Shown here one piece after another: positions 5,181-61,807 of a stretch of DNA of 62,960 nt. The stretch is taken from positions 1 through 62,960 of the IMG/VR virus record IMGVR_UViG_3300036861_000645, one strand, 5' to 3'. A model generated the notes under the pieces. That model was not told the DNA's origin. It saw nothing but the letters and a program-made list of their open reading frames with translations, and made no database searches. Made by a program: the position numbers and the translations under genes. The DNA is from a virus (Duplodnaviria; Caudoviricetes). Each line of letters begins with the position of its first letter. Within the stretch, counting starts at the first letter, position 1.

Positions 5181-6540
5181 CAAGGGCGCAGGCGGAGAAA
5201 TCGTGCCCGACGCGGCCGGAAACGTTTTGGCGATGCCGTTCTTCGAGGACGGCACGGTTGTTGCCGAAAAATATCGCGGGCCCGGCAAGGAATTTTGGCA
5301 GCGCAAAGGCGGGGCGCAAACGTTTTGGAACAATGACGCTTTGCGCGATCCCAGTTTCGAGACCTTCCGGCCCTTGATTATTTGCGAGGGCGAGCTCGAC
5401 GCCTTATCCGCCATCGAATCCGGCTTTCCCCTCGCCGTATCGGTGCCTAGCGGGGCGCCCTCGGCGGAAAGCGATGACGGGGACATCAAGCCGACCGGGA
5501 AATTCTCGTTCATGTGGCGCAACCGACATGCGCTTGCCCGAATTCCGCGGTTTGTCTTGGCCGTCGATGGCGATGAGCCGGGCCGGCGCCTTCAGAGTGA
5601 GCTGGTTCGCTTTTTGATGGCCTCGCGCTGCAGCTTTATCGAATATCCCGAAGGCTGCAAAGACCTCAATGAGGTCCTGGTCAAATTCGGGCCTCAGCAT
5701 GTGGCGATGGTGCTGAATACCGCCAAACCGTTCCCGGTCCATGGCTTGTATCGGTTGAGCGATTATCCGGCCGCCCCCGATCTGAAAACCTACACGACGG
5801 GCTGGGTCGGAATGGATGGGCACCTCCAGCCGGCCCTCGGTCAGTTCTGGGTCGTTTCCGGAATTCCGAACCATGGCAAAAGCCTGTGGACGCTCAATCT
5901 CGCCCACAATCTGGCTGGCATGCACAATTGGCCGGTCGCGATCTTCAGCCCGGAGATGCGCACCGTCCCGGTCTTACGCAACCGCCTCCGCCGCATGCGC
6001 GGGAAATTCGGAACAGCCGAGGCTTGCGACGCCTGGATCGAAGAGCGGTTCGTGTTCATGGACGGCGACCCGGACCGCAACGGGGATGCCGAGGAAGCCT
6101 TCAGCATGGCTTGGATCCTCAAAACGGCAACGGAAGCCGTATGGCGCTATGGGATCAAGGTCTTGGTGCTGGACCCCTGGAATGAAATCGAGCATACGAA
6201 AGAGATCGGGGAGACGACGACAGAGTATGTCGGCCGGTCTATCCGGCAACTCAAAGCATTCGCGTACAAGCATCAGGTTCTTGTCATTGTCGTCGCTCAT
6301 CCGACCAAGGATGTTGTTGGCAAGGACGGAAAAGCAAGAACGCCGACGCTTTACGATATTGAAAGCTCGGCCAACTGGTTTAATAAATGTGATGTGGGCA
6401 TAATTATCGAGCGCCCCGATTTTGAGCGGACGGAGTGCAACGTCTCGGTCCAGAAGGTCCGTTTCGAAGAGTGCGGCCGGCGGGGCTCGGTTCGCATGAA
6501 TTTCTGCCGCGACGAAGGTATTTATCGGATACTTGGCTAG
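5086..6540 (+). CDS. TOPRIM primase / DnaB-Twinkle-like helicase
   Basis: ICEGELDA, VSVPSGA, DGDEPG, KDLNE; Walker A GIPNHGKS; LVLDP; VAHP. Confidence 0.9.
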   Translation: MTGLSQRHINWLEHERAISAETASRYGLYSASKGAGGEIVPDAAGNVLAMPFFEDGTVVAEKYRGPGKEFWQRKGGAQTFWNNDALRDPSFETFRPLIICEGELDALSAIESGFPLAVSVPSGAPSAESDDGDIKPTGKFSFMWRNRHALARIPRFVLAVDGDEPGRRLQSELVRFLMASRCSFIEYPEGCKDLNEVLVKFGPQHVAMVLNTAKPFPVHGLYRLSDYPAAPDLKTYTTGWVGMDGHLQPALGQFWVVSGIPNHGKSLWTLNLAHNLAGMHNWPVAIFSPEMRTVPVLRNRLRRMRGKFGTAEACDAWIEERFVFMDGDPDRNGDAEEAFSMAWILKTATEAVWRYGIKVLVLDPWNEIEHTKEIGETTTEYVGRSIRQLKAFAYKHQVLVIVVAHPTKDVVGKDGKARTPTLYDIESSANWFNKCDVGIIIERPDFERTECNVSVQKVRFEECGRRGSVRMNFCRDEGIYRILG

Positions 6541-6554
6541 CGAAAGGGCGCATC

Positions 6555-6761
6555 ATGACCATTCGATTCCGGCTCATTTCGGACAAGGCGGACGAACAAT
6601 TTCCTGAGAATCAGGCGATCGAGGAATTCCGGAAGAGGGGATTTCTCTTTATGGGCAAGATCATGGACGAGGATTTCAAAGGTCTGCCCTATTTCACAGG
6701 ATTGAGTTGGCCATCGATTGTTGAGGGCGGCATCATTTGCTATTTTGAGGTAGCGGATTGA
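6555..6761 (+). CDS. Hypothetical protein
   Basis: RBS and ORF. Confidence 0.5.
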   Translation: MTIRFRLISDKADEQFPENQAIEEFRKRGFLFMGKIMDEDFKGLPYFTGLSWPSIVEGGIICYFEVAD

Positions 6762-7012
6762 AACCTCCCCTCCTCCGCAGCCAGATCACCACCCTCCTCA
6801 GCGAGGGCATAGACCCTGACGCGATCGCCATCCAGACTGGCGCCGACATCAGCTACGTCATGCGCCTGAAGCGGCACGACGGCATCCCCGAGCCCCACGC
6901 GAAGCGCCAGAAGCCCGCTTCCACCCCCTCGCCCCGCCAGCAGCGCTGCGCCGCCCTCAAAGCCGAGATCGAAACCCTCATTCTTCGCATCCTTGGCCCA
7001 TCGGAGGCTTGA
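6758..7012 (+). CDS. Hypothetical protein, possible HTH
   Basis: EGIDPDAIAIQTGADISYV. Confidence 0.5.
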   Translation: MKPPLLRSQITTLLSEGIDPDAIAIQTGADISYVMRLKRHDGIPEPHAKRQKPASTPSPRQQRCAALKAEIETLILRILGPSEA

Positions 7013-7036
7013 AAGCCCCATGATTTTGTGCCCATG

Positions 7037-7120
7037 CTTGGGGGTCGGAGGCACTGGTTCGAATCCAGTACCCTCTTCGTTCGCGAAGAAGTCGGTTAGC
7101 TTAGCGGTTAGAGCGCTGAC
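7037..7120 (+). ncRNA. Circularly permuted tRNA-like RNA (YrlA-like topology; possible Pro-UGG loop)
   Basis: Order: GTCGG - AGGC - T arm ACTGG TTCGAAT CCAGT - acceptor-like stem closed by TCTTCG TTCG CGAAGA - TA - D arm GCTT AGCGGTTA GAGC - G - CTGAC (pairs with GTCGG). Confidence 0.75.
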
Positions 7121-7144
7121 AACGAATTTTAGGAACCCAGATCC

Positions 7145-7345
7145 ATGGCTGACATCTCCGACGCCAGCAAAGCCGCAATGGCCTCAGCCCCCCAGGACGC
7201 CTGGTATCTCATCCCCGATCCCAGCAAGCTCCAGGACTTCATCGCCGCCGGCATTGCCATGGGCCGCCCCGATCTCAAGATCTGCCCCGCCCATATGAGC
7301 CGCAAGCTCGAGGGCCCTATCGTTGCTGACCCGGGAACTGCATGA
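7145..7345 (+). CDS. Hypothetical protein
   Basis: AGGA RBS; first gene after the tRNA-like element. Confidence 0.55.
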   Translation: MADISDASKAAMASAPQDAWYLIPDPSKLQDFIAAGIAMGRPDLKICPAHMSRKLEGPIVADPGTA

Positions 7346-7566
7346 GTAAGTTCGACCAATTCCCGCGCCTTCCCTCGCAAATCCAGCGGATCGCCATGCG
7401 CGCTGAGGCTAGGGCCATTGAGCGGCCTGCCGTCACTCCTGCGTTACGTAACGAAGCGGCAATCGTAACGCCGCGTGATGAAACCCCCAAGAGGGGCGGC
7501 CGTCCGAAAGTCTTCGCCTCGCCCGCCGAGCGCCAGAAGGCCTACCGGGCACGGAAACGGGGATGA
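7342..7566 (+). CDS. Small basic protein
   Basis: GGRPKVFASPAERQKAYRARK; coupled to terS. Confidence 0.6.
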   Translation: MSKFDQFPRLPSQIQRIAMRAEARAIERPAVTPALRNEAAIVTPRDETPKRGGRPKVFASPAERQKAYRARKRG

Positions 7567-8051
7567 CTACCAAGCGCAAAGCGCCTGAAGACCTGCTACC
7601 GGAAGGCCGGCCTTCTGCCTATCAAGAGCCCTATGCCGAGCAAGCTTTCAAGCTCTGCCTCCTTGGTGCAACAGACACCGAGATTGCCGATTTCTTCGAA
7701 GTAGCAACATCCACAATTTATTTGTGGAAAAAGAAACACCCGGAATTTTCGGAGGCCTTGGCCAAAGGGAAGGTCAAAGCCGACGCTGAGGTGGCTCATA
7801 GCCTCTACAATCGGGCCAACGGATACAGCCATGAGGCGGTGAAGATCTTCATGCCGGCCGGCGCCCAAAAGCCTGTTTACGCGGCCTATGTCGAGCACTA
7901 TCCGCCAGACACCAATGCCGCCACGCTGTGGCTCAAAAACCGCCAGAAGGACAAATGGCGGGATAGCCAGGAGATCACCGGCGATCTGACCATCAGCACG
8001 CTGGCTGAACGCATCGCCGCAGCAAGGCAACGCGATGGCGAAGACCGCTAA
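7563..8051 (+). CDS. terS: Terminase small subunit
   Basis: GRPSAY, LLGATDTEIADFFEV, WKKKHPEF, WLKNRQ; directly upstream of terL. Confidence 0.9.
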   Translation: MTTKRKAPEDLLPEGRPSAYQEPYAEQAFKLCLLGATDTEIADFFEVATSTIYLWKKKHPEFSEALAKGKVKADAEVAHSLYNRANGYSHEAVKIFMPAGAQKPVYAAYVEHYPPDTNAATLWLKNRQKDKWRDSQEITGDLTISTLAERIAAARQRDGEDR

Positions 8052-9630
8052 AGCGCTGACGGCGGCTGATGTCGAGGCCGATCTCGCCAATCTCATCGCG
8101 AGCTGTCATCATGATCCTCTACGCTTCGTGACACGGGCTTTCCCCTGGAAGGAAGCTGGCTCCGAGCTCGCCCTGCATGATGGCCCTGATGCGTGGCAGC
8201 GCGCCGTGCTCTGCGAGATCCGGGACGGGCTCAAGGCCGGTAAGGACCCGATCCAGACGGCGGTTGCGAGCGGCCATGGCGTGGGCAAGTCGACCCTCGT
8301 GGCCTGGCTGATCCTCTGGACCCTTGCCACCCATGAGGACGCCAAGGCGATCGTCACGGCGAATACCGAGATCCAGCTCCGCACCAAAACTTGGCCCGAG
8401 CTGTCTCATTGGTACAATCTCTTCATCGCCCGTCATTGGTTCATTATGACGGCGACCTCGATCTACTCGAGCGATCCCCGGCACGAGCGAACATGGCGCG
8501 CCGATGCAATTCCGTGGTCTGAGAACAGAACGGAGTCCTTCGCCGGTCTGCACAATCAAGGGCGCCGTGTCGCGCTGTTCTTCGATGAAGCCTCAGCCAT
8601 TCCGGATGTGATCTGGGAGACCGCCTCGGGTGCCCTGACCGACAAGGACACCGAGATCATCTGGGGCGCGTTCGGCAACCCGACGCGCAACACGGGCCGC
8701 TTCCGGGAGTGCTTCGGGCGCTTCCGGCACCGCTGGCGCACGCATCAGATCGACAGCCGCACCGCCAAGCTTACGAACAAGGAGCAGATTGCGCAGTGGA
8801 TCGCCGACTATGGCGAGGACAGCGACTTCGTGCGCGTCCGTGTGCGGGGCGTCTTCCCGCGGGCGGGCTCCATGCAGTTCATCTCCTCGGAGCTCGCTGA
8901 GGAGGCGGCGCGGCGCGAGGATCCCGAGACGACGCTCATGGACGCCCTTGTCATGGGTGTCGATGTGGCCCGCTTCGGCGATGACGAGACGGTCATCCAG
9001 CTCCGCCGCGGGCGGGATGGGCGTTCGATCCCGACCATTCGGCTCCGGGGCGCCGATACCATGACGGTGGCGGCCCGCGTGGCCGAGGCCTATCAGGAGC
9101 ACCGGCCGGATGCGATCTTCATCGACGGCGGTGGGCCTGGGGCGGGCGTGGTCGATCGCCTGCGTATGCTGCGCTATCCCGTGATCGAGATCCAATTTGG
9201 GGCGGCGCCGGACCGGACGCGCGAGACACAGGATGGCGCCATCGCCTATGCCAACAAGCGGGCGGAGATGTGGGGCTCGCTGCGAGACTGGCTGCGCCAT
9301 GGCAGCATCCCCAATGATCCTCAGCTCCTTGCCGATCTCTGCGGAGTGGAGTACGGCTATACGCTTCGTGAGGGGCGGGATGTGATCATCCTCGAGAAGA
9401 AAGCGGACATGAAGAAGCGGGGACTGTCCTCGCCGGACTGGGCCGACGCGCTCGCGCTGACGCTGGCTCTGCCCGTGCAGCCCTCGGACCACAGCCATGC
9501 GATGGGCGGCCGCGTGGCTCATTCCATCGACTACAAGCCTTTTGGCAGCGCCTACAAGCAGCCCAACCAGCCCTTGGGCTCGGAGCCGCGCAAGGGCACC
9601 TTCATGCCCCATGGACCCGGGAGAACCTGA
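8035..9630 (+). CDS. terL: Terminase large subunit
   Basis: Walker A SGHGVGKS, Walker B LFFDEA, GNPT, nuclease GVDVARFGDD and SPDWADAL. Confidence 0.95.
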   Translation: MAKTAKALTAADVEADLANLIASCHHDPLRFVTRAFPWKEAGSELALHDGPDAWQRAVLCEIRDGLKAGKDPIQTAVASGHGVGKSTLVAWLILWTLATHEDAKAIVTANTEIQLRTKTWPELSHWYNLFIARHWFIMTATSIYSSDPRHERTWRADAIPWSENRTESFAGLHNQGRRVALFFDEASAIPDVIWETASGALTDKDTEIIWGAFGNPTRNTGRFRECFGRFRHRWRTHQIDSRTAKLTNKEQIAQWIADYGEDSDFVRVRVRGVFPRAGSMQFISSELAEEAARREDPETTLMDALVMGVDVARFGDDETVIQLRRGRDGRSIPTIRLRGADTMTVAARVAEAYQEHRPDAIFIDGGGPGAGVVDRLRMLRYPVIEIQFGAAPDRTRETQDGAIAYANKRAEMWGSLRDWLRHGSIPNDPQLLADLCGVEYGYTLREGRDVIILEKKADMKKRGLSSPDWADALALTLALPVQPSDHSHAMGGRVAHSIDYKPFGSAYKQPNQPLGSEPRKGTFMPHGPGRT

Positions 9631-9958: not shown

Positions 9959-10180
9959 ATGGTGACCCCCATCAGCCATAAGATTGCTGGGATGAGCCGT
10001 GATCACCTTACGGGCTTGGCGCGCGCCCTCGTCAAACCGGCTGGCGCTGCGCAAGGCGCCCTAATCCCAGGCTTTGCGGCGTCGTCTGTCGGAGGGCGCT
10101 CGCTCACTGAGCTATCGCACAAAGAGTTGCTTGACCACGTCCATACGCTCCTCCAAACCACGTTGACCCCAAAGCTGTGA
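9959..10180 (+). CDS. Hypothetical protein
   Basis: Coupled to next gene. Confidence 0.5.
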   Translation: MVTPISHKIAGMSRDHLTGLARALVKPAGAAQGALIPGFAASSVGGRSLTELSHKELLDHVHTLLQTTLTPKL

Positions 10181-44654: not shown

Positions 44655-46625
44655 ATGGTACAAATACGCTTTCCCACCATCGCCGATGATCCGAACGGGC
44701 ACTTCTTTGACGTAAAGCTCGACTATGGCGCGGCTGGGGATGGCGTCACCGATGATACGCCCGCGATTCAGGCGGCTCTTACGGCAGCCTCGACGGGCGC
44801 AAATTTCCAGGGCGCAAATGGGACCACGTATTTCCCGGCTGGCACATACCTCATTTCGGCGCGGCTTATCACGCATAAAGTCAGCGGCACGAGTTCATCA
44901 CGTCAGCGCCTGATCGGAGAAGACAAGGCGACGACGATCATCAAGCTCAAGGACAATTGCACAGGCTTCGGCAATGTCGCGGTGAGCCCCACGACGTTCT
45001 ATCCTCGTGCGATGTTCCGCAACGGCTCCTCGACCACGACAGGCGGTCAGGACGGCGGCAACAATGGCTTCAACAACTCCGTTCGTAATCTGACCTTCGA
45101 TATCGGGGCTGGGAATCCCGGCGCTTGCGCGATCGATCACAATGGCAACAACTGGTCGCTGCTCGAAGATCTCATCCTCAAATCGAGCGATCCGGATTTT
45201 ATCGGCCATAGCCTTCTCTATATGGGCCGCAATTATCCAGGCCCAGGCTACGGAAAGAACATCGAGCTCTATGGCTCGGATTTCCCACTGTTTCTTGGTG
45301 CGATCGAATACTCTTTTGCCTTCGAAGGCCTGAAGATCCGCAATGCGCGGCGCCAGGCCATCTATTGCCCGCAGAACGCGCTGATCCTGAAGGATGGCGA
45401 TATCGTCGGAACGCCCAACATCAAGGGCGGCACGATCTACAGCTATATGACGCTGCTCGACACAAGCATCACCTATACCGGCCCGCATCCGATCGTCACT
45501 CCGAAACCGCCACCACCGCCGCCGCCGAGCATCGCGCTGGACACAGGGCCCGGCAAAGCGTTCCTGCAGAATGTGCGGGTCGATCTTTTTGAGCATCTGG
45601 GGATCGGGCCGACACTGCCGGGCACGGGGACCTATCCCCTGATCACGACGGATGCGCAGATCTGCAGCCTCTTTGGGAACGGTACAGGGCTGGTTCCTCT
45701 CATGGCAGAGGACCCGACCGTGTCGCCGGCGCCGTACGACCCAGGCGACCCCACGAAATGGAATGTGATCTCTCTGACGCCGGCCGATTCCACTGTCGAC
45801 TCTGGTCCTGCCATCCAGGCCGGTCTCGACAGCGCGGCTGAAGTGGTGGTCATCCCGCCTGGTGTCTTCTACGTCAAAGACCCACTCCTCGTGCGCGGCT
45901 CCACGAAGCGGCTCTATAGCGCGGGTGCATTGCTTCTGCTGAAGTCTGATGCCTCCGGATGGAACGATCCGAACAATCCCAAAAGCTTTATTCGCTTCAC
46001 GTCGGCCACGACGGATTGCGTGCTCGATTCGGTCGACGGCGGGGATTCGGCCGATCCTGCGATCGGCGGCACGCTTGGCTATGTCTTCATCAGCCACGAA
46101 AGCCCGCGCAATCTCTATGTGCGGGATAGCGCGACATTCCAGGTCTCCAAGCTCTGGGGCTATCGCAACACGGTCGATGGCACGGGGAAAATCTATCTCG
46201 GCAACACAGCCCTGGGCGCGGTGCAGATCAATGGTCAACAGCTCTGGGCGCGCAACCTCAACATGGAGACCTACACGCAAGCCGCGGGCACGGGACGCTT
46301 TCATAACAACGGCGGGCAGGCCTGGATTCTGGGTCTCAAGACAGAGGGGAAAGGCACAATCATTCTGGCCGAGAACGGGTCGAAGACCGTTCTCTATGGC
46401 GGGTTCATCTATCCCAATCAGGATTGGGTCGGGGGTGATGGTCCGCTGTTCAAGGTGATCGATTCGGAGTTCTCGGCAAACTGGGTGGAAATGACCTTCA
46501 GCGGCGCCCGCGTGTATCAGGATCTCGTCGCGGAGACTGTCGGCGCGGAGACCCGCGTGCTCCGTAAGGTCGATGTCGGCGCCCGCGGCGCCGGCAGCGG
46601 CGTCATGCTCTATTCGAACGTGTGA
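44655..46625 (+). CDS. Tandem beta-helix depolymerase (Pectate_lyase_3/GH55-like)
   Basis: VKLDYGAAGDGVTDDTPAIQAAL...YFPAGTYLIS; second repeat DSGPAIQAGLD. Confidence 0.85.
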   Translation: MVQIRFPTIADDPNGHFFDVKLDYGAAGDGVTDDTPAIQAALTAASTGANFQGANGTTYFPAGTYLISARLITHKVSGTSSSRQRLIGEDKATTIIKLKDNCTGFGNVAVSPTTFYPRAMFRNGSSTTTGGQDGGNNGFNNSVRNLTFDIGAGNPGACAIDHNGNNWSLLEDLILKSSDPDFIGHSLLYMGRNYPGPGYGKNIELYGSDFPLFLGAIEYSFAFEGLKIRNARRQAIYCPQNALILKDGDIVGTPNIKGGTIYSYMTLLDTSITYTGPHPIVTPKPPPPPPPSIALDTGPGKAFLQNVRVDLFEHLGIGPTLPGTGTYPLITTDAQICSLFGNGTGLVPLMAEDPTVSPAPYDPGDPTKWNVISLTPADSTVDSGPAIQAGLDSAAEVVVIPPGVFYVKDPLLVRGSTKRLYSAGALLLLKSDASGWNDPNNPKSFIRFTSATTDCVLDSVDGGDSADPAIGGTLGYVFISHESPRNLYVRDSATFQVSKLWGYRNTVDGTGKIYLGNTALGAVQINGQQLWARNLNMETYTQAAGTGRFHNNGGQAWILGLKTEGKGTIILAENGSKTVLYGGFIYPNQDWVGGDGPLFKVIDSEFSANWVEMTFSGARVYQDLVAETVGAETRVLRKVDVGARGAGSGVMLYSNV

Positions 46626-46628
46626 GCC

Positions 46629-47585
46629 ATGCCAACCATTCGCTTCCCCCCAGCGCTGAGCGGCACCTTCCTCTTCGATGTCAGGGCCTATGGTGCGGTC
46701 GGTGATGGCGTTGCGGACGACACGGTGGCGGTGCAAGCCGCGACCACGGCGGCATGCGACTTCGCCGGGATTGCCTATGCCGTGGTGTATTTTCCGATCG
46801 GAACCTATCTCATCAGCGATCGGATCATGACGCATGCGTCGAGCGGCTCTCCTCCGACCAGATCGCGCAAGCAGTTCATCGGGGAGAGTCGTGAGCTCAG
46901 CGTCATCAAGCTCAAGGACAATGCGACGGGCTTCACGACCATCCCGGACAATCTGACGACATTCTATCCTCGGGGTATGATCCGCAACTCGGGCTCTAAT
47001 CCGCTCATCGGGACGGACGACGGCAGCAACAATGGATTCTTCAATACGTTCAAGAACATGACGATGGATATCGGGTCCGGCAATGTCGGCGCCTGCGCGA
47101 TCGATTTCAATGGCAACAATTGGTGCCTGCTCGAAAATCTTCTGCTGCGCTCCAGCGATCCCGAGTTCAAGGGGCACTCCTTGCTCTACATGGGCCGCCC
47201 TTACCCGGGACCGGGTTACGCGCGCATGCTGGATCTGCGCGGCACCGAGTATCCGCTCTTTGTCGGCCAGCCAGAATACTCCTTCATTTTCGAGAATCTG
47301 ACCATTCGTAACGCCCGGACACGCGGGATCTACAACCAGCAGAACATGCTGATCATCCGTGGGCTGGACTACATCGGCACACCGCCGAGCTATGCGTCAT
47401 CCAATCCACTGGCGGCATTGACGCTCATCGATTCGGTAATGAGCGGCGTTGCGGAGAAACAGGGCAGCAGCGGCCTTGCCACGGGCGTTGGTCTTGCCGC
47501 CCGGGCCGGCCTTGATGTGAATGTCGGCTTAAGGGCCGGCACAGGCATCGCGACGGGAACAGGGGTCGGAAAAGTATGGCCATAG
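46629..47585 (+). CDS. Beta-helix protein, paralog of the N-half of 44655-46625
   Basis: VRAYGAVGDGVADDT...YFPIGTYLIS. Confidence 0.8.
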   Translation: MPTIRFPPALSGTFLFDVRAYGAVGDGVADDTVAVQAATTAACDFAGIAYAVVYFPIGTYLISDRIMTHASSGSPPTRSRKQFIGESRELSVIKLKDNATGFTTIPDNLTTFYPRGMIRNSGSNPLIGTDDGSNNGFFNTFKNMTMDIGSGNVGACAIDFNGNNWCLLENLLLRSSDPEFKGHSLLYMGRPYPGPGYARMLDLRGTEYPLFVGQPEYSFIFENLTIRNARTRGIYNQQNMLIIRGLDYIGTPPSYASSNPLAALTLIDSVMSGVAEKQGSSGLATGVGLAARAGLDVNVGLRAGTGIATGTGVGKVWP

Positions 47586-50906: not shown

Positions 50907-53192
50907 ATGGCGTTGAGCGCAGGCACAGGCGTTTCGAAGCAGCCCACGGGCGCGGAAGTCACGATCGCGCTGACGGACCTTCAGGTGGCTCTCACGAGCC
51001 TTGTGGCCCTCGCCACCGCGGCGAACACAACGGCGAACCAGGCGCTGACCCGCGTGGCGACGGTCGAGCCCATCGTCAACGGGCTCAATTCCCAGCAGCA
51101 GCAGAATGTTGCCGCCATCGCCGCGGCGCAGGCTGGGGTCACCCAGGCGCAGCAATCCATCAACGCGAACACGGCCGCCGATGCCCAGAAGGCCACGCAG
51201 ATCGCAGGGCTTCAGACCGGCCTCAGCGTGGCTCAGGGCGATATCAACATCCTGAAGCAGGCGGGCGGCGCCGTCGAGAGCCCCAACGGGACACCGATCA
51301 CACCCGGCGCCGGCACCGCCTATGACGCCGCCGTAGCCGCCTGGACCATCGCGGGCAGCCTCCCGGCCGGCGGCCATCCCCAGAAGGCCGGTGTCGATTA
51401 CGGCTCGGTCACGACCGCCGTCTTCGGGAAATATTACAAGCCCACCTCTGCCGCCGGGGTCATGTACTTCAAGGATTTCGCGGGGGCGTGGTGGAAGGAC
51501 AACGGAACGACCTTGGTCGCCAATACGGCGGGCGATCCCGATGCGCCCATCACGATCGCCGAGAGCACCAACGGCGCGGCCATCACGCCGAGCTCGGGCA
51601 CGGATTACGACAGCGCGCTCGCGCCCTGGACCATCGCGGGCAGCCTCCCGGCCGGCGGTCAGGTCAAAAAGAGCGGCGCGAACTATGGCTCGGTCACGAC
51701 CGCAGTCTATGGCAAATATTACAAGCCGACCTCCGCTGCGGGCGTCATGTATTTCAAGGACGCCGCGAACAATTGGTGGCGGGACAACGGGACCACGCTC
51801 GTTGCGAACACCGCCGGCGATCCGGACAATCCCACGGTCATCAGCGAGAGCACCGATAATACCTCCATCACGCTGAACAATGGCTTCCTCTACGATGCCA
51901 ATCTCTATCGCTGGGCCGTGGTGCTTAATTTCCCGGGGACGGCGACCGGATCGACCTCGCTTGTCACGCGCGCGCCGCCCTATACCGGCCCCGATATCTG
52001 GCCGAACTCCACCATCGTGCCGCCCACCGATCAGGGCAATCACGATGTCCAATCGGCGTTCTACAACGGCCATGCGGTCTATCAGGTCAACACCATCGGC
52101 GCGATCTACAAGGTCGTCCTGACCCCACCCAGCACCTTCGTCGGCTCGGGCCCCATCACACCGGACCCGCGGGGCACCTCGAGCTTGCCAACCATCGCGG
52201 CGGCGGCCAAGCCCGGCGGGGTGATCCAGTTCGGCGGCATCGCCTCGAACGAGCTCACGAATTTCAATCAGTATTGCGGATGGTGGCGTCTGACGGCCGA
52301 TGCGACGGCCGATTCGGCGCCGCTCTGGAACGGAACGACCTTCACCAACACGATGGCCCAGCTCATGGGCACCGGCAAGATCGTCTTCATCATCACCTAT
52401 TTCGCTTATGGCTCGGACGTCACAAACTACAACGATCCGACCACGGTCAATACGACCAAGCTGAACAGCTACATCAACACCTACATCCCGGCGATGGTGG
52501 CGGGCGTGCGCTCGCGCTATCCGAACTCGCAAAATCAGATCGTCTGGCAGGTCTACAACGAGCCCCATATGCGCCAGGACCTCCTGCGCGGGACATGGCT
52601 GCCGGCGATCATCACGGCCATCCGCAATGCGGAGATCGCGCAGGGCGAACCGCCGCACTACATCGCCGTCATGGCATCCGACGCTCCTACAGCCGGCGGT
52701 CATCAGGACTGGGATATCGGCCTTATCAACATGGCGCCGTTCTCCGATACTCGGATCATCTATGGCTTTCACTGGTACACCCCAGGGAATTACACGGGCC
52801 AGGGCACGGCAGGATGGCCTGCTGCGGGCACCGTGAGCTATCCCCAGTCGGGAGACCAGACGACGCTCACCAATCGCTTCAACGCCGTGAACAACTACAA
52901 GAACACGAACAGCGTGCCGATCCTGCTGGATGAGTACAACTGCGCCGGCTTCGACCCCGGCTCGAGCGGACCTGGCTTCCGTCCCATGCCTCTGATGCGC
53001 AGTCGCTTCATGAAGGACATCACCGATGCCGCCAAGAGCCGCGGCTTCATCGTCGGCCCCTTCGGCATCCAGGATTACAACTCCTGGGATCCGCTCGTGG
53101 ACAATGCGCGGCCGAATCGGGTGATCGCGGCGCAGCTCATCACGCGCGACTTCGGCGACGGGCTCGGGCCGGTCCCGATCGTGTGGGGGTGA
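50907..53192 (+). CDS. Fibre-like protein with C-terminal GH5-like glycoside hydrolase
   Basis: Coiled-coil N-terminus; two 95-aa repeats; WQVYNEPH, YGFHWY, PILLDEY. Confidence 0.8.
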   Translation: MALSAGTGVSKQPTGAEVTIALTDLQVALTSLVALATAANTTANQALTRVATVEPIVNGLNSQQQQNVAAIAAAQAGVTQAQQSINANTAADAQKATQIAGLQTGLSVAQGDINILKQAGGAVESPNGTPITPGAGTAYDAAVAAWTIAGSLPAGGHPQKAGVDYGSVTTAVFGKYYKPTSAAGVMYFKDFAGAWWKDNGTTLVANTAGDPDAPITIAESTNGAAITPSSGTDYDSALAPWTIAGSLPAGGQVKKSGANYGSVTTAVYGKYYKPTSAAGVMYFKDAANNWWRDNGTTLVANTAGDPDNPTVISESTDNTSITLNNGFLYDANLYRWAVVLNFPGTATGSTSLVTRAPPYTGPDIWPNSTIVPPTDQGNHDVQSAFYNGHAVYQVNTIGAIYKVVLTPPSTFVGSGPITPDPRGTSSLPTIAAAAKPGGVIQFGGIASNELTNFNQYCGWWRLTADATADSAPLWNGTTFTNTMAQLMGTGKIVFIITYFAYGSDVTNYNDPTTVNTTKLNSYINTYIPAMVAGVRSRYPNSQNQIVWQVYNEPHMRQDLLRGTWLPAIITAIRNAEIAQGEPPHYIAVMASDAPTAGGHQDWDIGLINMAPFSDTRIIYGFHWYTPGNYTGQGTAGWPAAGTVSYPQSGDQTTLTNRFNAVNNYKNTNSVPILLDEYNCAGFDPGSSGPGFRPMPLMRSRFMKDITDAAKSRGFIVGPFGIQDYNSWDPLVDNARPNRVIAAQLITRDFGDGLGPVPIVWG
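51276..51845 (+). repeat. Diverged 285-bp tandem duplication inside the GH5 fibre gene
   Basis: WTIAGSLPAGG, YGSVTTAV, GKYYKPTSAAGVMYFKD, DNGTTLVANTAGDPD each occur twice. Confidence 0.9.
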
Positions 53193-53437: not shown

Positions 53438-54088
53438 CTATGCTTGTTTCTGCGCGAGCTGCTCAGCCGCGCACTTTCGGATGTCCGCGATGGCGTTCTC
53501 GGTGCTGTCAAAAAACCACGGCACAGACTTGCGGGATGCGTGATAGATGAGCGTTCCCGCCATCTGGACTCCGACCTTATCCTGTAGAGCCTTGCCCTTC
53601 TCGCCGGCCAGATGCACCGCCCATCCAGCCCGGCAATGCGTCGTACCGCACCAATGATCATCCGGGCCGTGCCACGAGTCCATGTCTAGGGTGCCGCCGG
53701 TTTCGATTGCCTTGAGAATTTCGGCGTCGATTGCGTCGATGACAGGAATCTCTTCTGGCGGAATTTTCAAGGCGTCTGCGAGGTTGGCGCCCGCGAGGTT
53801 GGCGTCCGCGAGGTTGGCGTCCGCGAGGTTGGCGCCCGCGAGGTTGGCGCCCGCGAGGTTGGCGCCCGCGAGGTAGGCGCCCGCGAGGTAGGCGCGCGCG
53901 AGGTTGGCGCCCGCGAGGTAGGCGCCCGCGAGGTAGGCGCGCGCGAGGTCGGCGCCCGCGATGTCGGCGCGCGCTTTCACTGCTAGTTCTAGCGCGACCT
54001 TGCAGCGCAGATGCTCCTCCGTATCGTCGGGGATTTCCTGCGTATAGATCACCTTGGCCGTGATCCTGGCTTTGAATTCGAATTTCAT
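53438..54088 (-). CDS. Pentapeptide-repeat protein with CGTTHCRAGW C-terminal domain
   Basis: A(N/Y/D)LA(G/R/D) repeats, 15-bp units about 53776-53975. Confidence 0.9.
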   Translation of the reverse strand: MKFEFKARITAKVIYTQEIPDDTEEHLRCKVALELAVKARADIAGADLARAYLAGAYLAGANLARAYLAGAYLAGANLAGANLAGANLADANLADANLAGANLADALKIPPEEIPVIDAIDAEILKAIETGGTLDMDSWHGPDDHWCGTTHCRAGWAVHLAGEKGKALQDKVGVQMAGTLIYHASRKSVPWFFDSTENAIADIRKCAAEQLAQKQA

Positions 54089-59818: not shown

Positions 59819-60375
59819 TAAAAATCTCCATGACTGGCAAAGGCGCCATGAAATTTTTCCCGCGCATCGCGTATTGCAGCTATTGCCTGCTCAAGAGTTT
59901 CAAATGTTCCGATATGATGGCGCTTCCTGGAAAGCGTTATTCCAGCCTTGAATTTTTGTTCTCTCACGCTCCACCAAACGCCCTTCGGAAGATCGCGCTC
60001 CACTCTTCTATGTTGCTTCATTATGTTTTGCGAATGCAGGCAGGACTGGAGATTTTCAATCCTGTTATTTGTATGATCTCCATCAATATGGTCTATCACA
60101 TTCTCTGGTGGGATATCTCCGTGAAACATCGAGTAAACGATGCGATGCTCCAGAATTTTTGCACCGCATAATGAGATCGTCCTATATCCATTTCCCATAG
60201 GAGAGCCGGCGCGCTTACTGGCACAGTTTGAGTTCCATATTTTACAGAGACGTGCCGTCTCGAAATCAGTTTCTGGCCGACTCTTCCAAAATAAAGCGCC
60301 ATCCCGATACGTAAAACGCGTCAGGAGATATTCTTGGCTCGGCAATTTGCGGCGCTTGCTGGGTGCCGCGCTCAT
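59818..60375 (-). CDS. HNH-AP2 homing endonuclease
   Basis: GALFWK, EHRIVY, IDHIDGDHTNNRIENL, HIGTFET; AT-rich. Confidence 0.9.
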   Translation of the reverse strand: MSAAPSKRRKLPSQEYLLTRFTYRDGALFWKSRPETDFETARLCKIWNSNCASKRAGSPMGNGYRTISLCGAKILEHRIVYSMFHGDIPPENVIDHIDGDHTNNRIENLQSCLHSQNIMKQHRRVERDLPKGVWWSVREQKFKAGITLSRKRHHIGTFETLEQAIAAIRDAREKFHGAFASHGDF

Positions 60376-61007
60376 GTCGCATACTTCCGCCTCAGGGCTT
60401 CCATCTTCTCATCCGTCTCGCTGAGGAACTCCCTCACCTCGCGCTCGATTTGCGCGATGCGATTGTCATCGCGCTCAACGCGCCTAACAAAAAGCCGCAT
60501 CTCGACAGGAAAATCCGGATTCCAACTGACGTAGTCCGCGTCCTCAGCATCGCAGCAAGCCATCTGCCAAATCATCTGAAGCATATATTTCTCAGGAATG
60601 GTGCCGCTCAGAAGCGTTTCGAGATGCATTGCGGGTTGTGGACACTTGATCTCTAAAACACGCGGAACGCCGATCACGAGCCCGTCCGGCGAGGCGTGGG
60701 TGCCCTTGATCGACGGATGAGGCTTGAGCCCTATTTCCTGTACGCCGCAGTCTTGGTCGAAGCAATAGGCATTGCGTGCTTCCGGCTCTCGCTCGATACC
60801 AGTCAGCATAGCAGCGTTCTGATATGTCTCCTGAGGAACGCCGGTCAGCCGCTCGATGATAAGACGGCTTTGAAGATTGGCCCGCGATGCGCCCCATCCC
60901 GTTTTCGTGCGCGCAAGAGCCTCATGCAACGAGGACGCGCCGAGCGAGCCGCAGCGCGCAGCTTTCCATTCCGAACTTCCCTGGATCAGTTCCGATGTGT
61001 CGGTCAT
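60372..61007 (-). CDS. YqaJ / lambda-exonuclease family nuclease
   Basis: QGSSEWKAARCG, ASPDGLV, LEIKCP, Q..WQM. Confidence 0.9.
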   Translation of the reverse strand: MTDTSELIQGSSEWKAARCGSLGASSLHEALARTKTGWGASRANLQSRLIIERLTGVPQETYQNAAMLTGIEREPEARNAYCFDQDCGVQEIGLKPHPSIKGTHASPDGLVIGVPRVLEIKCPQPAMHLETLLSGTIPEKYMLQMIWQMACCDAEDADYVSWNPDFPVEMRLFVRRVERDDNRIAQIEREVREFLSETDEKMEALRRKYAT

Positions 61008-61807
61008 GGTTTCTTGGCCTGTTTCTGCTTGAGCATCTTCAGCGCTTCGTCGAAGTCCGAGGCCTTGAGCTTGGAGACGCTCTCCGCCTTGAAGTGTTTC
61101 AGGAAGGCCTCTTGGTTCGCGCTCGTTACTGCGAGCAAGTCCGTCAGCGTGCCGAGCTGCTCATCGGTGATGACGGGGTCGTCGGCAGTGCCAGATGCTT
61201 TGGCATCGTCATCCTCACTGGAGGACAGCCCGAGCGAAGCCTTCAAGGTCATTCGCTGCAGATAAGTGAGGGTACTGCCCATGCTCTGCAGGTAGTTCTT
61301 GGAGCCCGATTCATCACGTGGCCCGGGCAGAGAGTTCTCAACCGAATGCCCAGCTTCGTGGAAAACGACGCAGGTCACGATAATATTGCTCCCGTCCATC
61401 TTCGTCTCAAAGCGATAGTCGAGCCCGTATTTCGAGAGGATGGGGCGGGCGGTGCGCTCGATCTCCGCAAGATCTTCGTATTTGTAATGCGTCCGTCCTT
61501 TTTGCGATGTGAAATCCACCGTGCGGTTCTTGAGAATGACGGGAATTTCGCCCTTGGCTCGGGTCAGGGCTGCGTTAAACGCGTTCCGCGCTATATTCGC
61601 CTCATGCCGCTCGCTCAGGTTCATGAGGCGTTCCAGCACCTCGATGCTGGCGCCCTGCTCGATAGCCTTGCTGAGCATCAGGAGGGGCGTGGGCGGGGCT
61701 TGCTGGAAGTCCAGGCGCACCACGCCGCCCGATGCGCCGCGCGCACCACGGACCTCGCCCGGCAAGGGGGGCAGCATCTCGGCCAATTCGTCCTTGTCTT
61801 GCATCAC
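61004..61807 (-). CDS. erf: ERF family ssDNA-annealing protein
   Basis: YKYEDL, HEAG, Q.MGSTLTYLQRMTL...EDDDA. Confidence 0.88.
   Translation of the reverse strand: MMQDKDELAEMLPPLPGEVRGARGASGGVVRLDFQQAPPTPLLMLSKAIEQGASIEVLERLMNLSERHEANIARNAFNAALTRAKGEIPVILKNRTVDFTSQKGRTHYKYEDLAEIERTARPILSKYGLDYRFETKMDGSNIIVTCVVFHEAGHSVENSLPGPRDESGSKNYLQSMGSTLTYLQRMTLKASLGLSSSEDDDAKASGTADDPVITDEQLGTLTDLLAVTSANQEAFLKHFKAESVSKLKASDFDEALKMLKQKQAKKP

Follow-up and report, generated by a model that had tools for sequence, protein, structure and literature searches.

Permuted tRNA genes, in which the 3′ half lies upstream of the 5′ half, are found in red algae and archaea; they have a full 7-bp acceptor and are matured by the eukaryal or archaeal splicing endonuclease together with a ligase. 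We know of no bacterial pathway for the maturation of a permuted tRNA. In the two-piece tmRNA of Alphaproteobacteria, the 5′ acceptor strand follows the T arm and the 3′ acceptor strand in the gene, and there is no D arm. Plant mitochondrial t-elements, mascRNA, and the tRNAs that serve as punctuation in longer transcripts have an open acceptor end and normal gene order. The Y RNAs of bacteria contain a tRNA-like domain whose role is, to our knowledge, not yet known. A literature search combining "permuted tRNA" with "bacteriophage" gave no phage permuted tRNA gene among the papers listed, judged by title and abstract opening. According to one report, the YrlA RNA of M. smegmatis has a closed 7-bp acceptor stem that RNase P cleaves in vitro, and the RNA is cleaved and CCA-tailed in vivo; Salmonella YrlA is modified by TruB and DusA (Chen et al. 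2014, PMC4201824).

The DNA analyzed here, referred to as the window, is the complete genome of a 63-kb podophage from soil (62,960 bp), for which the likely host clade is alphaproteobacterial. Two small-share soil DNA sequencing runs lacked coverage of 7032–7214 (X2) and 7032–7153 (X3), while one run of the three contained every sampled word and is the probable origin of the record. All three runs are of DNA, with none of RNA listed, and they yielded no variants.

Anatomy and genomic setting of the element

At positions 7044–7120 of the + strand, the window contains a 77-nt tRNA-like element in which the core features of a tRNA are complete but their order is rearranged. The 3′ half comes first, the acceptor end is closed, and the anticodon end is open, a topology that the initial annotation had described and that proved real, with the letters and coordinates it gave for each tRNA element all confirmed on the sequence. 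The element begins with GTCGG (7044–7048), the 3′ strand of a closing helix that resembles an anticodon stem (tRNA positions 39–43) and pairs at 5/5 positions with CTGAC (7116–7120). The 4-nt variable region AGGC (7049–7052; A44, G45, G46, C48) aligns to the variable positions of R1, a covariance model built from 13 other phage YrlA-like modules with the window excluded. It is followed by the T arm ACTGG-TTCGAAT-CCAGT (7053–7069), with a 5-bp stem and the loop TTCGAAT, which is matched by both Rfam and R1, and by an acceptor-like stem closed into a hairpin (7070–7096). This stem is composed of 3 bp (ACC 7070–7072 with GGT 7094–7096), a 1×4 internal loop, and 6 bp capped by TTCG, so that the perfect 6-bp hairpin TCTTCG-TTCG-CGAAGA (7074–7089) sits inside the ACC/GGT pairing. 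The equivalents of U8 and A9 (T7097, A7098) align to the UA of R1 and of the Rfam YrlA model RF02553. The D arm GCTT-AGCGGTTA-GAGC (7099–7114) is again matched by Rfam and R1; its loop, AGCGGTTA, includes G18 and G19 and is identical in two phage YrlA-like loci, L096 and L108. The element ends with an equivalent of G26 (G7115) and, at tRNA positions 27–31, CTGAC as the 5′ side of the closing helix (7115–7120). CCA is absent, and in a 7-bp acceptor register 5/7 positions are paired, with two central mismatches.

The contacts of a canonical tRNA include U8-A14, R15-Y48, G18 and G19 with U55 and C56, U54-A58, and G53-C61, and further A9 with U12-A23, G45 with G10-C25, and G26 opposite A44. With this list and the tRNA position numbers as we take them to apply to 7044–7120, nucleotides for every listed tertiary contact are present, and the earlier claim of a complete elbow signature is borne out.

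The element lies in a non-coding gap of 132 nt (7013–7144, + strand), between an 84-aa ORF without a family match (6758–7012, +) and a 66-aa ORF (7145–7345, +), the first gene past the gap, for which no real relative was found in the viral_contigs collection. Coding of the gap itself by an ORF at 6993–7298 was rejected, as its GC3 is only 0.59, against 0.84 and 0.76 for the flanking + strand ORFs. The 66-aa ORF is followed by a 74-aa ORF, terS (7563–8051), and terL (8035–9630), with the element thus approximately 440 nt upstream of terS. An AGGA Shine-Dalgarno-like motif and the ATG of the 66-aa ORF occupy 7131–7147 (+), 24 nt downstream of the element.

Controls, homologue searches, and the relatives' tRNA genes

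R1 matched 7045–7120 with 42.3 bits (E 4e-10), the sole match in the window with E<1. Ordinary tandem-tRNA junctions score 38–66 bits with R1, and 42.3 bits alone is therefore non-discriminating. In a control set of 350 junctions between neighbouring, different phage tRNAs, 5/5 complementarity across the "anticodon stem" was found at 7/350 and a hairpin of at least 6 bp between the T arm and U8 at 23/350. The element has both features, and by these controls a chance meeting of two unrelated tRNAs does not explain it. ARAGORN called 0 tRNA genes in the whole window, so that no intact tRNA lies beside the element. RF00005 matched 7003–7077 at 18.7 bits, below its cut-off of 29, with the T arm supplying most of the score; on these two results a linear tRNA was rejected, and neither flank is recognizable as a tRNA half. 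Comparison of the element with five Bradyrhizobium genomes that carry related prophages gave longest matches of 14–24 nt, all with E of at least 0.1, by which a recent copy of a Bradyrhizobium tRNA was rejected.

No homologue was found in 311 related loci, in 151 Bradyrhizobium-family genomes, or by scanning the viral, metagenome, and genome contigs with sequence patterns, and neither conservation nor covariation therefore stands behind the element. A blastn search of 6990–7160 against 50,697 phage records returned only T-arm matches of 21–28 nt, which fell in tRNA genes or unannotated DNA. A regular expression together with R1 over 80 terS-related loci gave two weak matches, both without a D arm. 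Among helicase-related loci, R1 gave 0 matches over 80 viral loci, a single 13.4-bit match over 81 metagenome and viral loci, and matches solely at real tRNA genes over 70 genome loci. R2, a model built from the window sequence alone, gave a lone match of 28.5 bits over the 151 Bradyrhizobium-family genomes, which was rejected as spurious, having no T-loop and no tRNA. A DNA pattern specific to the window found 56 loci in viral_contigs, none of which resembles the element: 50 either are junctions between tandem tRNAs or coincide in part with a tRNA call, and the remaining six (L288, L298, L301, L302, L331, L335) appeared YrlA-like by eye. ARAGORN calls a tRNA over L301 and L335. A tighter pattern found 0 loci in metagenome_contigs and 0 in genome_contigs. 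As no relatives are known, the function of the element is still a guess, and the present value of this single sequence is that of a testable lead.

The main rival to a functional element is an inert relic, in which tRNA genes, most simply a tandem pair made by duplication of one tRNA, once stood between the replication and packaging modules; deletions would have taken the outer halves and left a young, non-functional permuted fragment. Genes for tRNA do occur in this slot, upstream of terS in 10/80 terS relatives (in L041, for instance, at a distance of 228 nt) and downstream of the helicase in 4/70 genome loci, one of which (L451) has four tRNAs there, and they make a relic plausible. The 5/7 pairing of the acceptor register is what a decaying duplicate would show, and the lack of conservation among related loci and genomes fits the same history, as does a tRNA-like fold that is not the thermodynamic optimum. 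The relic is nonetheless rather unlikely. Both the 5/5 closing stem and the hairpin are rare between unrelated tRNAs in the controls above, and neighbours with the same anticodon make up merely 22/372 pairs. A relic would require both outer halves to have decayed until unrecognizable, whereas the nucleotides of the tertiary contacts in the inner halves are all intact. The phage is without any other tRNA, and the operon is otherwise tightly packed, so that its retention of a 132-nt gap counts against a relic and for a functional mimic.

The relatives' tRNA genes also bear on a site acting at the DNA level, with the tRNA likeness only historical, such as a vestigial attP core, a pac or terminase site, or an operator at TCTTCG-N4-CGAAGA. 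In L419 and L440, which are related prophages, the end lies at a tRNA-Pro(tgg) gene approximately 1.4–2 kb past the helicase, with TTCTGAC repeats adjoining, so that the relatives' att site maps to the same module boundary; the position of the element approximately 440 nt upstream of terS also speaks for such a site. A DNA-level site is very unlikely, however, as the complete genome has no tyrosine integrase (PF00589, 0 matches), no recombinase was found among the 95 different ORFs scanned, and the element's sequence is unlike the tRNA-Pro genes of L419 and L440. Furthermore, an attP requires just the 3′ part of a tRNA with no 5′ half after it, and the palindrome occurs once in the genome. A tRNA-derived attP core was rejected on the absence of PF00589, on that dissimilarity to the tRNA-Pro genes, and on matches to the five Bradyrhizobium genomes of at most about 24 nt, which were non-significant. 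A repeated operator was rejected because the palindrome is unique, with 6 near-matches against 3.6 expected (not significant), and direct repeats of 8–15 nt around the element were discarded as being at chance level by a rough estimate.

Comparison with YrlA and other tRNA-like RNAs

The tRNA-like domain of YrlA (RF02553) has the same layout as the element, with closing stem, variable region, T arm, closed hairpin, UA, D arm, and closing stem in that order, and its T-loop and D-loop consensus is the same. The initial annotation had matched the element to YrlA by topology. The order of the tRNA-like domain is supported by both Rfam and R1, but membership of the family is not: RF02553 aligns 7052–7114 to YrlA model positions 30–81 with 14.2 bits against a gathering threshold of 69 (E 3.8 in a 351-nt search of 6900–7250). 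At gathering thresholds Rfam has no match to the element, and standard tRNA and Rfam scans miss elements of this kind entirely. Where YrlA has an invariant GCTC in the D stem and GGTC as variable region, the element has GCTT and AGGC. It also differs in its complete 5-bp closing stem, in having an equivalent of G26, and in the interruption of the acceptor hairpin. The element is also located inside a protein-coding operon, without a called promoter or terminator of its own, and it has no Ro-binding helix, no YrlA flank motifs, and no adjacent or phage-encoded Ro60. PF05731 matches nothing in the whole 62,960-bp genome, in agreement with the earlier observation that no Ro60/TROVE gene is visible. 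The Ro60-binding helix is absent in that the flanks have no conserved motifs and pair no better than shuffled sequence; neither the flank motifs of phage YrlA-like RNAs (GGTTAC... / ...ACTTG) nor those of Bradyrhizobium YrlA (TACTTC / GTTCCCGG) occur around the element. Its architecture is that of the YrlA tRNA-like domain without the Ro60-binding helix, in a phage without a Ro60 gene.

YrlA-type modules are common in phage contigs, with 13 loci found by one narrow pattern. Among ten phage contigs with a YrlA-like module, TROVE is present in 6/10 and absent in 4/10, two of the latter being 100% complete. The Ro60-less phage RNAs (L146, L152, L159, L168) resemble the element in being phage-borne permuted modules with no TROVE in the contig. 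These four, however, share conserved flanks (ACAGCAA ... YCCAAG upstream) with an outer helix and adjoin tRNA arrays; the element has neither the flanks nor a tRNA array, and it scores 42 bits with R1 against their 72–77. Among likely hosts, 2/5 Bradyrhizobium genomes with related prophages encode Rsr (TROVE) with adjoining YrlA-like RNAs, and these RNAs were the top matches of the window-derived R2 (39 bits). Together with the shared topology, this speaks for a divergent Y RNA still able to bind the Ro60 (Rsr) of the host by way of the closing stem and flanks, linking it to a partner in the manner of YrlA. Such an RNA is most unlikely here, given that RF02553 covers only positions 30–81 at a score far under its threshold, that the phage and Bradyrhizobium flank motifs are missing and the flank helix is at chance level, and that this phage has no TROVE whereas most of the YrlA-like-bearing phage contigs do.

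The 3′-half-first order is shared with the permuted tRNA genes of red algae and archaea, and ARAGORN at default settings calls the de-permuted element tRNA-Pro(tgg). CTTGGGG is present at 7037–7043 and, if read as an anticodon loop, offers U33 together with a purine as nucleotide 37. A genuine permuted gene for tRNA-Pro(UGG), with a transcript made circular or joined by ligation at 7120/7037 and then cut open at its acceptor end to yield a working tRNA, is nevertheless the least probable of the readings weighed here. The same ARAGORN test is passed by 52/350 chimeras of unrelated tRNA halves (15% false positives). The red algal and archaeal genes differ from the element, which has two central acceptor mismatches and no CCA and belongs to a phage in which no ligase (RtcB) was found, and its acceptor also differs from those of the tRNA-Pro(UGG) genes of L419 and L440. 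The strand order is likewise that of the two-piece tmRNA, a form found in the element's likely host clade, the Alphaproteobacteria. The element, however, has a canonical D arm and lacks a tag reading frame and CCA. A tmRNA was rejected, with ARAGORN giving 0 and none present among the 8 Rfam matches with E up to 10 in 6900–7250. By analogy with t-elements, mascRNA, and tRNA punctuation, a tRNA-shaped fold between coding regions could direct RNase P-type cleavage. In this case the acceptor is closed, unlike that of t-elements and mascRNA, and the cleavage precedent is solely M. smegmatis YrlA (PMC4201824).

Folding, expression, and possible functions

In nearest-neighbour folding, three separate hairpins (-23.9 kcal/mol) are preferred to the tRNA-like fold (-19.2 kcal/mol), which counts against a mimic. 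The T arm (7053–7069) has an ensemble pair probability of 0.998, and 7121–7130 is 0.9 unpaired. A second copy of GTCGG (7091–7095, +) is the rival of 7044–7048 for CTGAC at 7116–7120: in the MFE and the ensemble, 7091–7096 pairs with 7115–7120 at a probability of 0.85–0.88, against approximately 0.05 for the tRNA-like closing stem. The 13 phage modules have continuous helices, but the acceptor-like stem of the element is irregular (3 bp, 1×4 loop, 6 bp). A consensus scan called neither a promoter nor a terminator on the + strand, a further result against a mimic. The letters of the promoter suggested by the initial annotation, TTGAAA-N18-CATGCT, are present, yet it is weak and was not among the scan's calls.

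The outer helix suggested to cover the start of the 66-aa ORF was not supported, with -14.4 kcal/mol for the flank duplex against a shuffle mean of -13.95 and 42% of 2000 shuffles as good. This helix (7030–7042/7136–7149) is the basis of another reading, a cis-acting translational riboregulator in which the flanks pair around the module and hide the start codon. It can be drawn, and it is in the MFE of isolated 121-nt and 131-nt stretches. In a 270-nt context, however, its pair probabilities are approximately 0 and the AUG is 0.66 unpaired, and the z-score of the 121-nt fold is -0.52, making such control extremely unlikely.

With the anatomy, its departure from chance, the intergenic position, and the absence of a Ro module established, we tentatively favour a functional, Ro-independent mimic of the tRNA core or elbow in the leader of the packaging operon, as possible rather than probable. 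We infer that the element is transcribed with the packaging operon or as a leader. Presumably adopting the tRNA-like fold in vivo, it would engage a host factor that recognizes the body of a tRNA and not its ends; candidates are RNase P, modification enzymes of the TruB or Dus type, and any partner of the YrlA tRNA-like domain.

A further reading, although quite improbable, is a "headless" Y RNA, the tRNA-like effector domain alone without the Ro60-binding stem, acting as a dominant-negative decoy. Such a decoy would occupy the factor recruited by the YrlA tRNA-like domain or by the tRNA elbow, whether PNPase as a component of the RNA-decay machine Rsr-YrlA-PNPase or enzymes of the RNase P/TruB type, and might thereby uncouple a host RNA-surveillance pathway in late infection. 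A natural tRNA-like domain stripped of its Ro60-binding module would isolate the activity of that domain and point to its partner.

The sub-mechanism that we favour for the mimic, itself doubtful, is a processing or stability signal resembling tRNA punctuation at the boundary of early and late genes. Acting in cis, the element would be a phage or bacterial case in which a permuted tRNA body without ends punctuates an mRNA. If RNase P cut at its expected position, 7089|7090 (seven nt before U8), the upstream RNA would end exactly where the UUCG hairpin ends and the downstream RNA would begin one nt ahead of the alternative hairpin at 7091–7120, and this hairpin would also account for the duplicated GTCGG. 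When folded, the products of this hypothetical cut have terminal hairpins.

Anatomy and setting of the tRNA-like element

Every part that the initial annotation had listed for a permuted tRNA-like RNA lies in the window sequence where it was placed; the observation is confirmed, and the interpretation built on it is partly supported. The element (7044-7120, +) has a perfect T arm and a perfect D arm, and its first strand, GTCGG (7044-7048), is complementary at five of five positions to its last, CTGAC (7116-7120), giving a potential closing stem. In the interval from the T arm to U8, three base pairs (ACC/GGT) are separated by a 1x4 internal loop from a perfect 6-bp stem with a TTCG cap. The nucleotides for what we take to be the standard tRNA tertiary contacts are complete, and under the numbering we assume, the base triples and the G26/A44 pair are also accounted for if the variable region is taken as 4 nt. 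The element is a tRNA body minus both functional ends, with the acceptor capped and the anticodon loop open, and what is left of the tRNA is its L-shaped core and elbow.

The element sits in a 132-nt gap (7013-7144) between an upstream 84-aa ORF (6758-7012) and a downstream 66-aa ORF (7145-7345). A 74-aa ORF separates the latter from terS (7563-8051) and terL (8035-9630), and the genes around the gap up to terL adjoin or overlap their neighbors. The gap is judged non-coding because GC3 is 0.59 in the ORF reading through it vs. 0.84 and 0.76 in the flanking ORFs. A consensus scan called no terminator in 6500-7700, and the promoter proposed for the element, although its letters are there, was not called either. 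The sole promoter-like (sigma-70-like) site in 6500-7700 lies on the minus strand at 7155-7126 (ATGTCA-18-TAAAAT, 9/12), antisense into the element; with one found and 0.3 expected, it may be chance.

The window comprises one entire IMG/VR virus record (62,960 bp, G+C 61%), which CheckV rates as 100% complete. Gene content places the phage among the BPP-1/epsilon15-like podophages, with a GP7-type major capsid, Bbp16/Bbp19-like proteins and a Gp80-like fiber; an HNH gene adjoins the portal gene, and a primase-helicase is present. The phage also encodes an MT-A70 methyltransferase (1744-2349, +), two pectate-lyase-like tail spikes (44655-47585, +), a 761-aa protein that includes a GH5 cellulase domain (50907-53192, +) and a pentapeptide-repeat protein (53438-54088, -). 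No tyrosine integrase was found in the complete record, although an ERF/YqaJ recombination pair is present (60372-61807, -). Since the nearest helicase relatives in genomes belong to prophages of Bradyrhizobium and uncultured Alphaproteobacteria (at most 54% identity), the host is probably a soil alphaproteobacterium.

Detection, chance and folding

ARAGORN found no tRNA or tmRNA genes over the window, and Rfam reported no family at gathering thresholds. Under permissive settings, the Rfam tRNA model gave 18.7 bits (cut-off 29) over 7003-7077, with the T arm driving the score, and the model for YrlA, a bacterial Y RNA (RF02553), gave 14.2 bits (cut-off 69), aligning 7052-7114 with model positions 30-81, which represent the tRNA-like domain only. 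An IMG/VR search for a T loop, 15-45 nt and a D arm returned at least 121 loci; among the matches listed, 108 overlap at least one ARAGORN-called tRNA, mostly at tandem-tRNA junctions, and 13 have no overlapping tRNA and a hairpin as spacer. A covariance model (R1) trained on these 13 phage modules, with the window left out, gave its best match in the window, 42.3 bits (E 4e-10), at 7045-7120; the runner-up reached 8.7 bits. In a control of 100 pattern loci, training members scored 67-79 bits and ordinary tandem-tRNA junctions 38-66 bits, so the R1 score proves only the order of T arm followed by D arm. The second, weak R1 match (E 1.5; 10096-10147, -), which includes a D-arm-like string TAGCTCAGT…GAGC, lies inside the start of a 513-aa tail-protein gene and is probably chance.

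As a chance control, 350 junctions between neighboring, different phage tRNAs were examined. Pairing at five of five positions between the 39-43 strand of the upstream tRNA and the 27-31 strand of the downstream tRNA was seen in 7/350, and a hairpin of at least 6 bp within the T arm-U8 interval in 23/350. The window has both features together and lacks recognizable outer tRNA halves, making it unlikely that the element consists of two unrelated tRNA remnants. Tandem duplication of a single tRNA is a possible evolutionary origin.

Thermodynamic folding speaks against the tRNA-like fold, if not decisively, as these models leave out tertiary contacts and modifications. The predicted minimum free energy (MFE) structure is three separate hairpins (-23.9 kcal/mol vs. 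-19.2 for the tRNA-like structure), and a second GTCGG (7091-7095) competes with 7044-7048 for CTGAC, the closing-stem probability being about 0.05. The module-alone MFE also missed the closing stem in several of the 13 phage modules. The suggested outer helix (7030-7042/7136-7149) does not stand out: it reaches -14.4 kcal/mol, whereas 2000 pairs of shuffled flanks average -13.95 and 42% of them do as well. Its pair probabilities are near zero in a 270-nt context, and the 121-nt fold has a z-score of -0.52. When the halves were joined in silico in de-permuted order, ARAGORN (default) called tRNA-Pro(tgg), but 52/350 chimeras of unrelated neighboring halves passed too, as did 4/22 same-anticodon pairs.

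Comparison with YrlA RNAs and Ro60

The tRNA-like domain of YrlA has the same build as the element: a capped acceptor, an open anticodon loop, and a core with elbow. Chen et al. (2014; PMC4201824) describe YrlA tRNA-like domains as modified by TruB and DusA. They report for M. smegmatis YrlA, whose 7-bp acceptor stem is closed, that RNase P cuts it in vitro and that it undergoes cleavage and CCA tailing in vivo.

Judging from the IMG/VR pattern matches, YrlA-type modules are common among phages. Rfam was run on 18 sources (the 13 tRNA-free loci and five more); 11/13 of the tRNA-free loci matched YrlA at 29-48 bits (E <=0.01), with L155 and L159 giving no such match. TROVE/Ro60 is encoded in 6/10 module-bearing phage contigs tested and absent from 4/10, two of these four being 100% complete. 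The six loci with a YrlA-like RNA and a TROVE/Ro60 ORF on the same contig (L088, L108, L124, L140, L163 and L181; contigs G001-G004, G008 and G010) scored 31-48 bits, all under the gathering score of 69, and so are missed. The TROVE gene is about 1 kb or less from the RNA in G001, G003 and G004, and all Ro-linked phage modules share conserved flanks (GGTTAC... upstream, ...ACTTG downstream). L163 carries two tandem YrlA-like copies.

Four further modules, L146:395-477(-), L152:395-465(-), L159:387-458(+) and L168:295-364(-), form a distinct subclass among the YrlA-like tRNA mimics of phages. They have a D arm GGTTTAGAGC, adjoin tRNA genes, reach just 0-34 bits with RF02553, and share …ACAGCAA… and YCCAAG directly upstream and a GGAAAC/GTTTCC-type outer helix. 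The TROVE search covered the large contigs of L146, L159 and L168 (170-401 kb, two 100% complete), which are without TROVE/Ro60; the L152 contig is 14.9 kb long. In Bradyrhizobium, 2/5 genomes have TROVE with adjoining YrlA-like RNAs, two in one genome (L499:4225-4523(-), G013) and one in the other (L500:2642-2710(+), G012), with GGTGAAGA…TACTTC upstream, CTCAGC…GTTCCCGG downstream and Rfam scores of 40-41 bits, under the gathering score.

The window contains neither the flank motifs of the Ro-linked phage modules nor those of the Bradyrhizobium YrlAs (TACTTC, GTTCCCGG). Because every YrlA test run (Rfam score, Ro-binding helix, Ro60 linkage) was negative, the element is filed as YrlA-domain-like rather than YrlA, a Ro-independent variant.

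Origin and candidate function

No counterpart of the element was found among 80 loci related by terS (identity up to 65%), among loci related by helicase in viral (80), metagenome (80) and genome (70) collections (identity up to 58%), or at one locus found through the 66-aa ORF. Two further DNA patterns retrieved no relative, and a model built from the window only (R2) gave one spurious match (28.5 bits) over 151 Bradyrhizobium-family genomes. As no collection searched holds a close relative of the phage, absence from distant relatives says little. A search of literature mostly outside subscription journals, and so no proof that the idea is unpublished, turned up no paper on a permuted tRNA-like element standing alone within a phage operon.

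We tentatively read the element as a functional tRNA-core mimic, a real possibility that we stop short of calling probable. Its structure is striking and overlooked by standard tools; it is a single sequence without relatives, a neutral origin is plausible, and the candidate function is unproven. The main rival, an inert relic of tRNA genes, we consider doubtful: tRNA genes occupy the same slot in relatives (4/70 genome loci and 10/80 terS relatives, the latter with tRNA-Asn and/or tRNA-Thr genes that mostly lie upstream of terS), the acceptor is imperfect and no conservation was found, but the tertiary-contact signature is intact, the outer tRNA halves are erased, and the gap has been retained within a compact operon. 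A recent copy of Bradyrhizobium tRNAs was considered and rejected, with matches of 14-24 nt, none significant (lowest E-value 0.1), many of them within the T arm of the query.

For a functional tRNA-core mimic, the mechanism we prefer, itself unlikely and purely conjectural, is a processing and stability signal resembling tRNA punctuation. RNase P would cut at 7089|7090, precisely where the UUCG hairpin ends on its 3' side and one nucleotide ahead of the alternative hairpin 7091-7120, so that both products would be folded with protective terminal hairpins; the alternative hairpin would then give a reason for the duplicated GTCGG. A trans-acting decoy, in effect a headless Y RNA, is the boldest reading left by the evidence and seems distinctly improbable.

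Helicase-related alphaproteobacterial prophages at two loci (minus strand; L419:6300-6480, L440:5700-5850) terminate at tRNA-Pro(tgg), about 1.4-2 kb past the helicase, with two to three TTCTGAC repeats just inside that probably serve as arm-type integrase sites. The att site of relatives accordingly falls at the element's module boundary; the tRNA-Pro(tgg) genes themselves are unlike the element in sequence. The remaining readings, that the element is a Ro60-binding Y RNA, a true permuted tRNA-Pro, an outer-helix riboswitch, or an attP, pac or operator site, are unlikely even jointly; a tested feature counts against each. Other tRNA genes were seen in a helicase-related Comamonas MAG prophage (L451:5665-7009), where Gly, Ser, Arg and Met genes lie 1.3-2.6 kb downstream of the helicase, and at L450, which has one (Gly).
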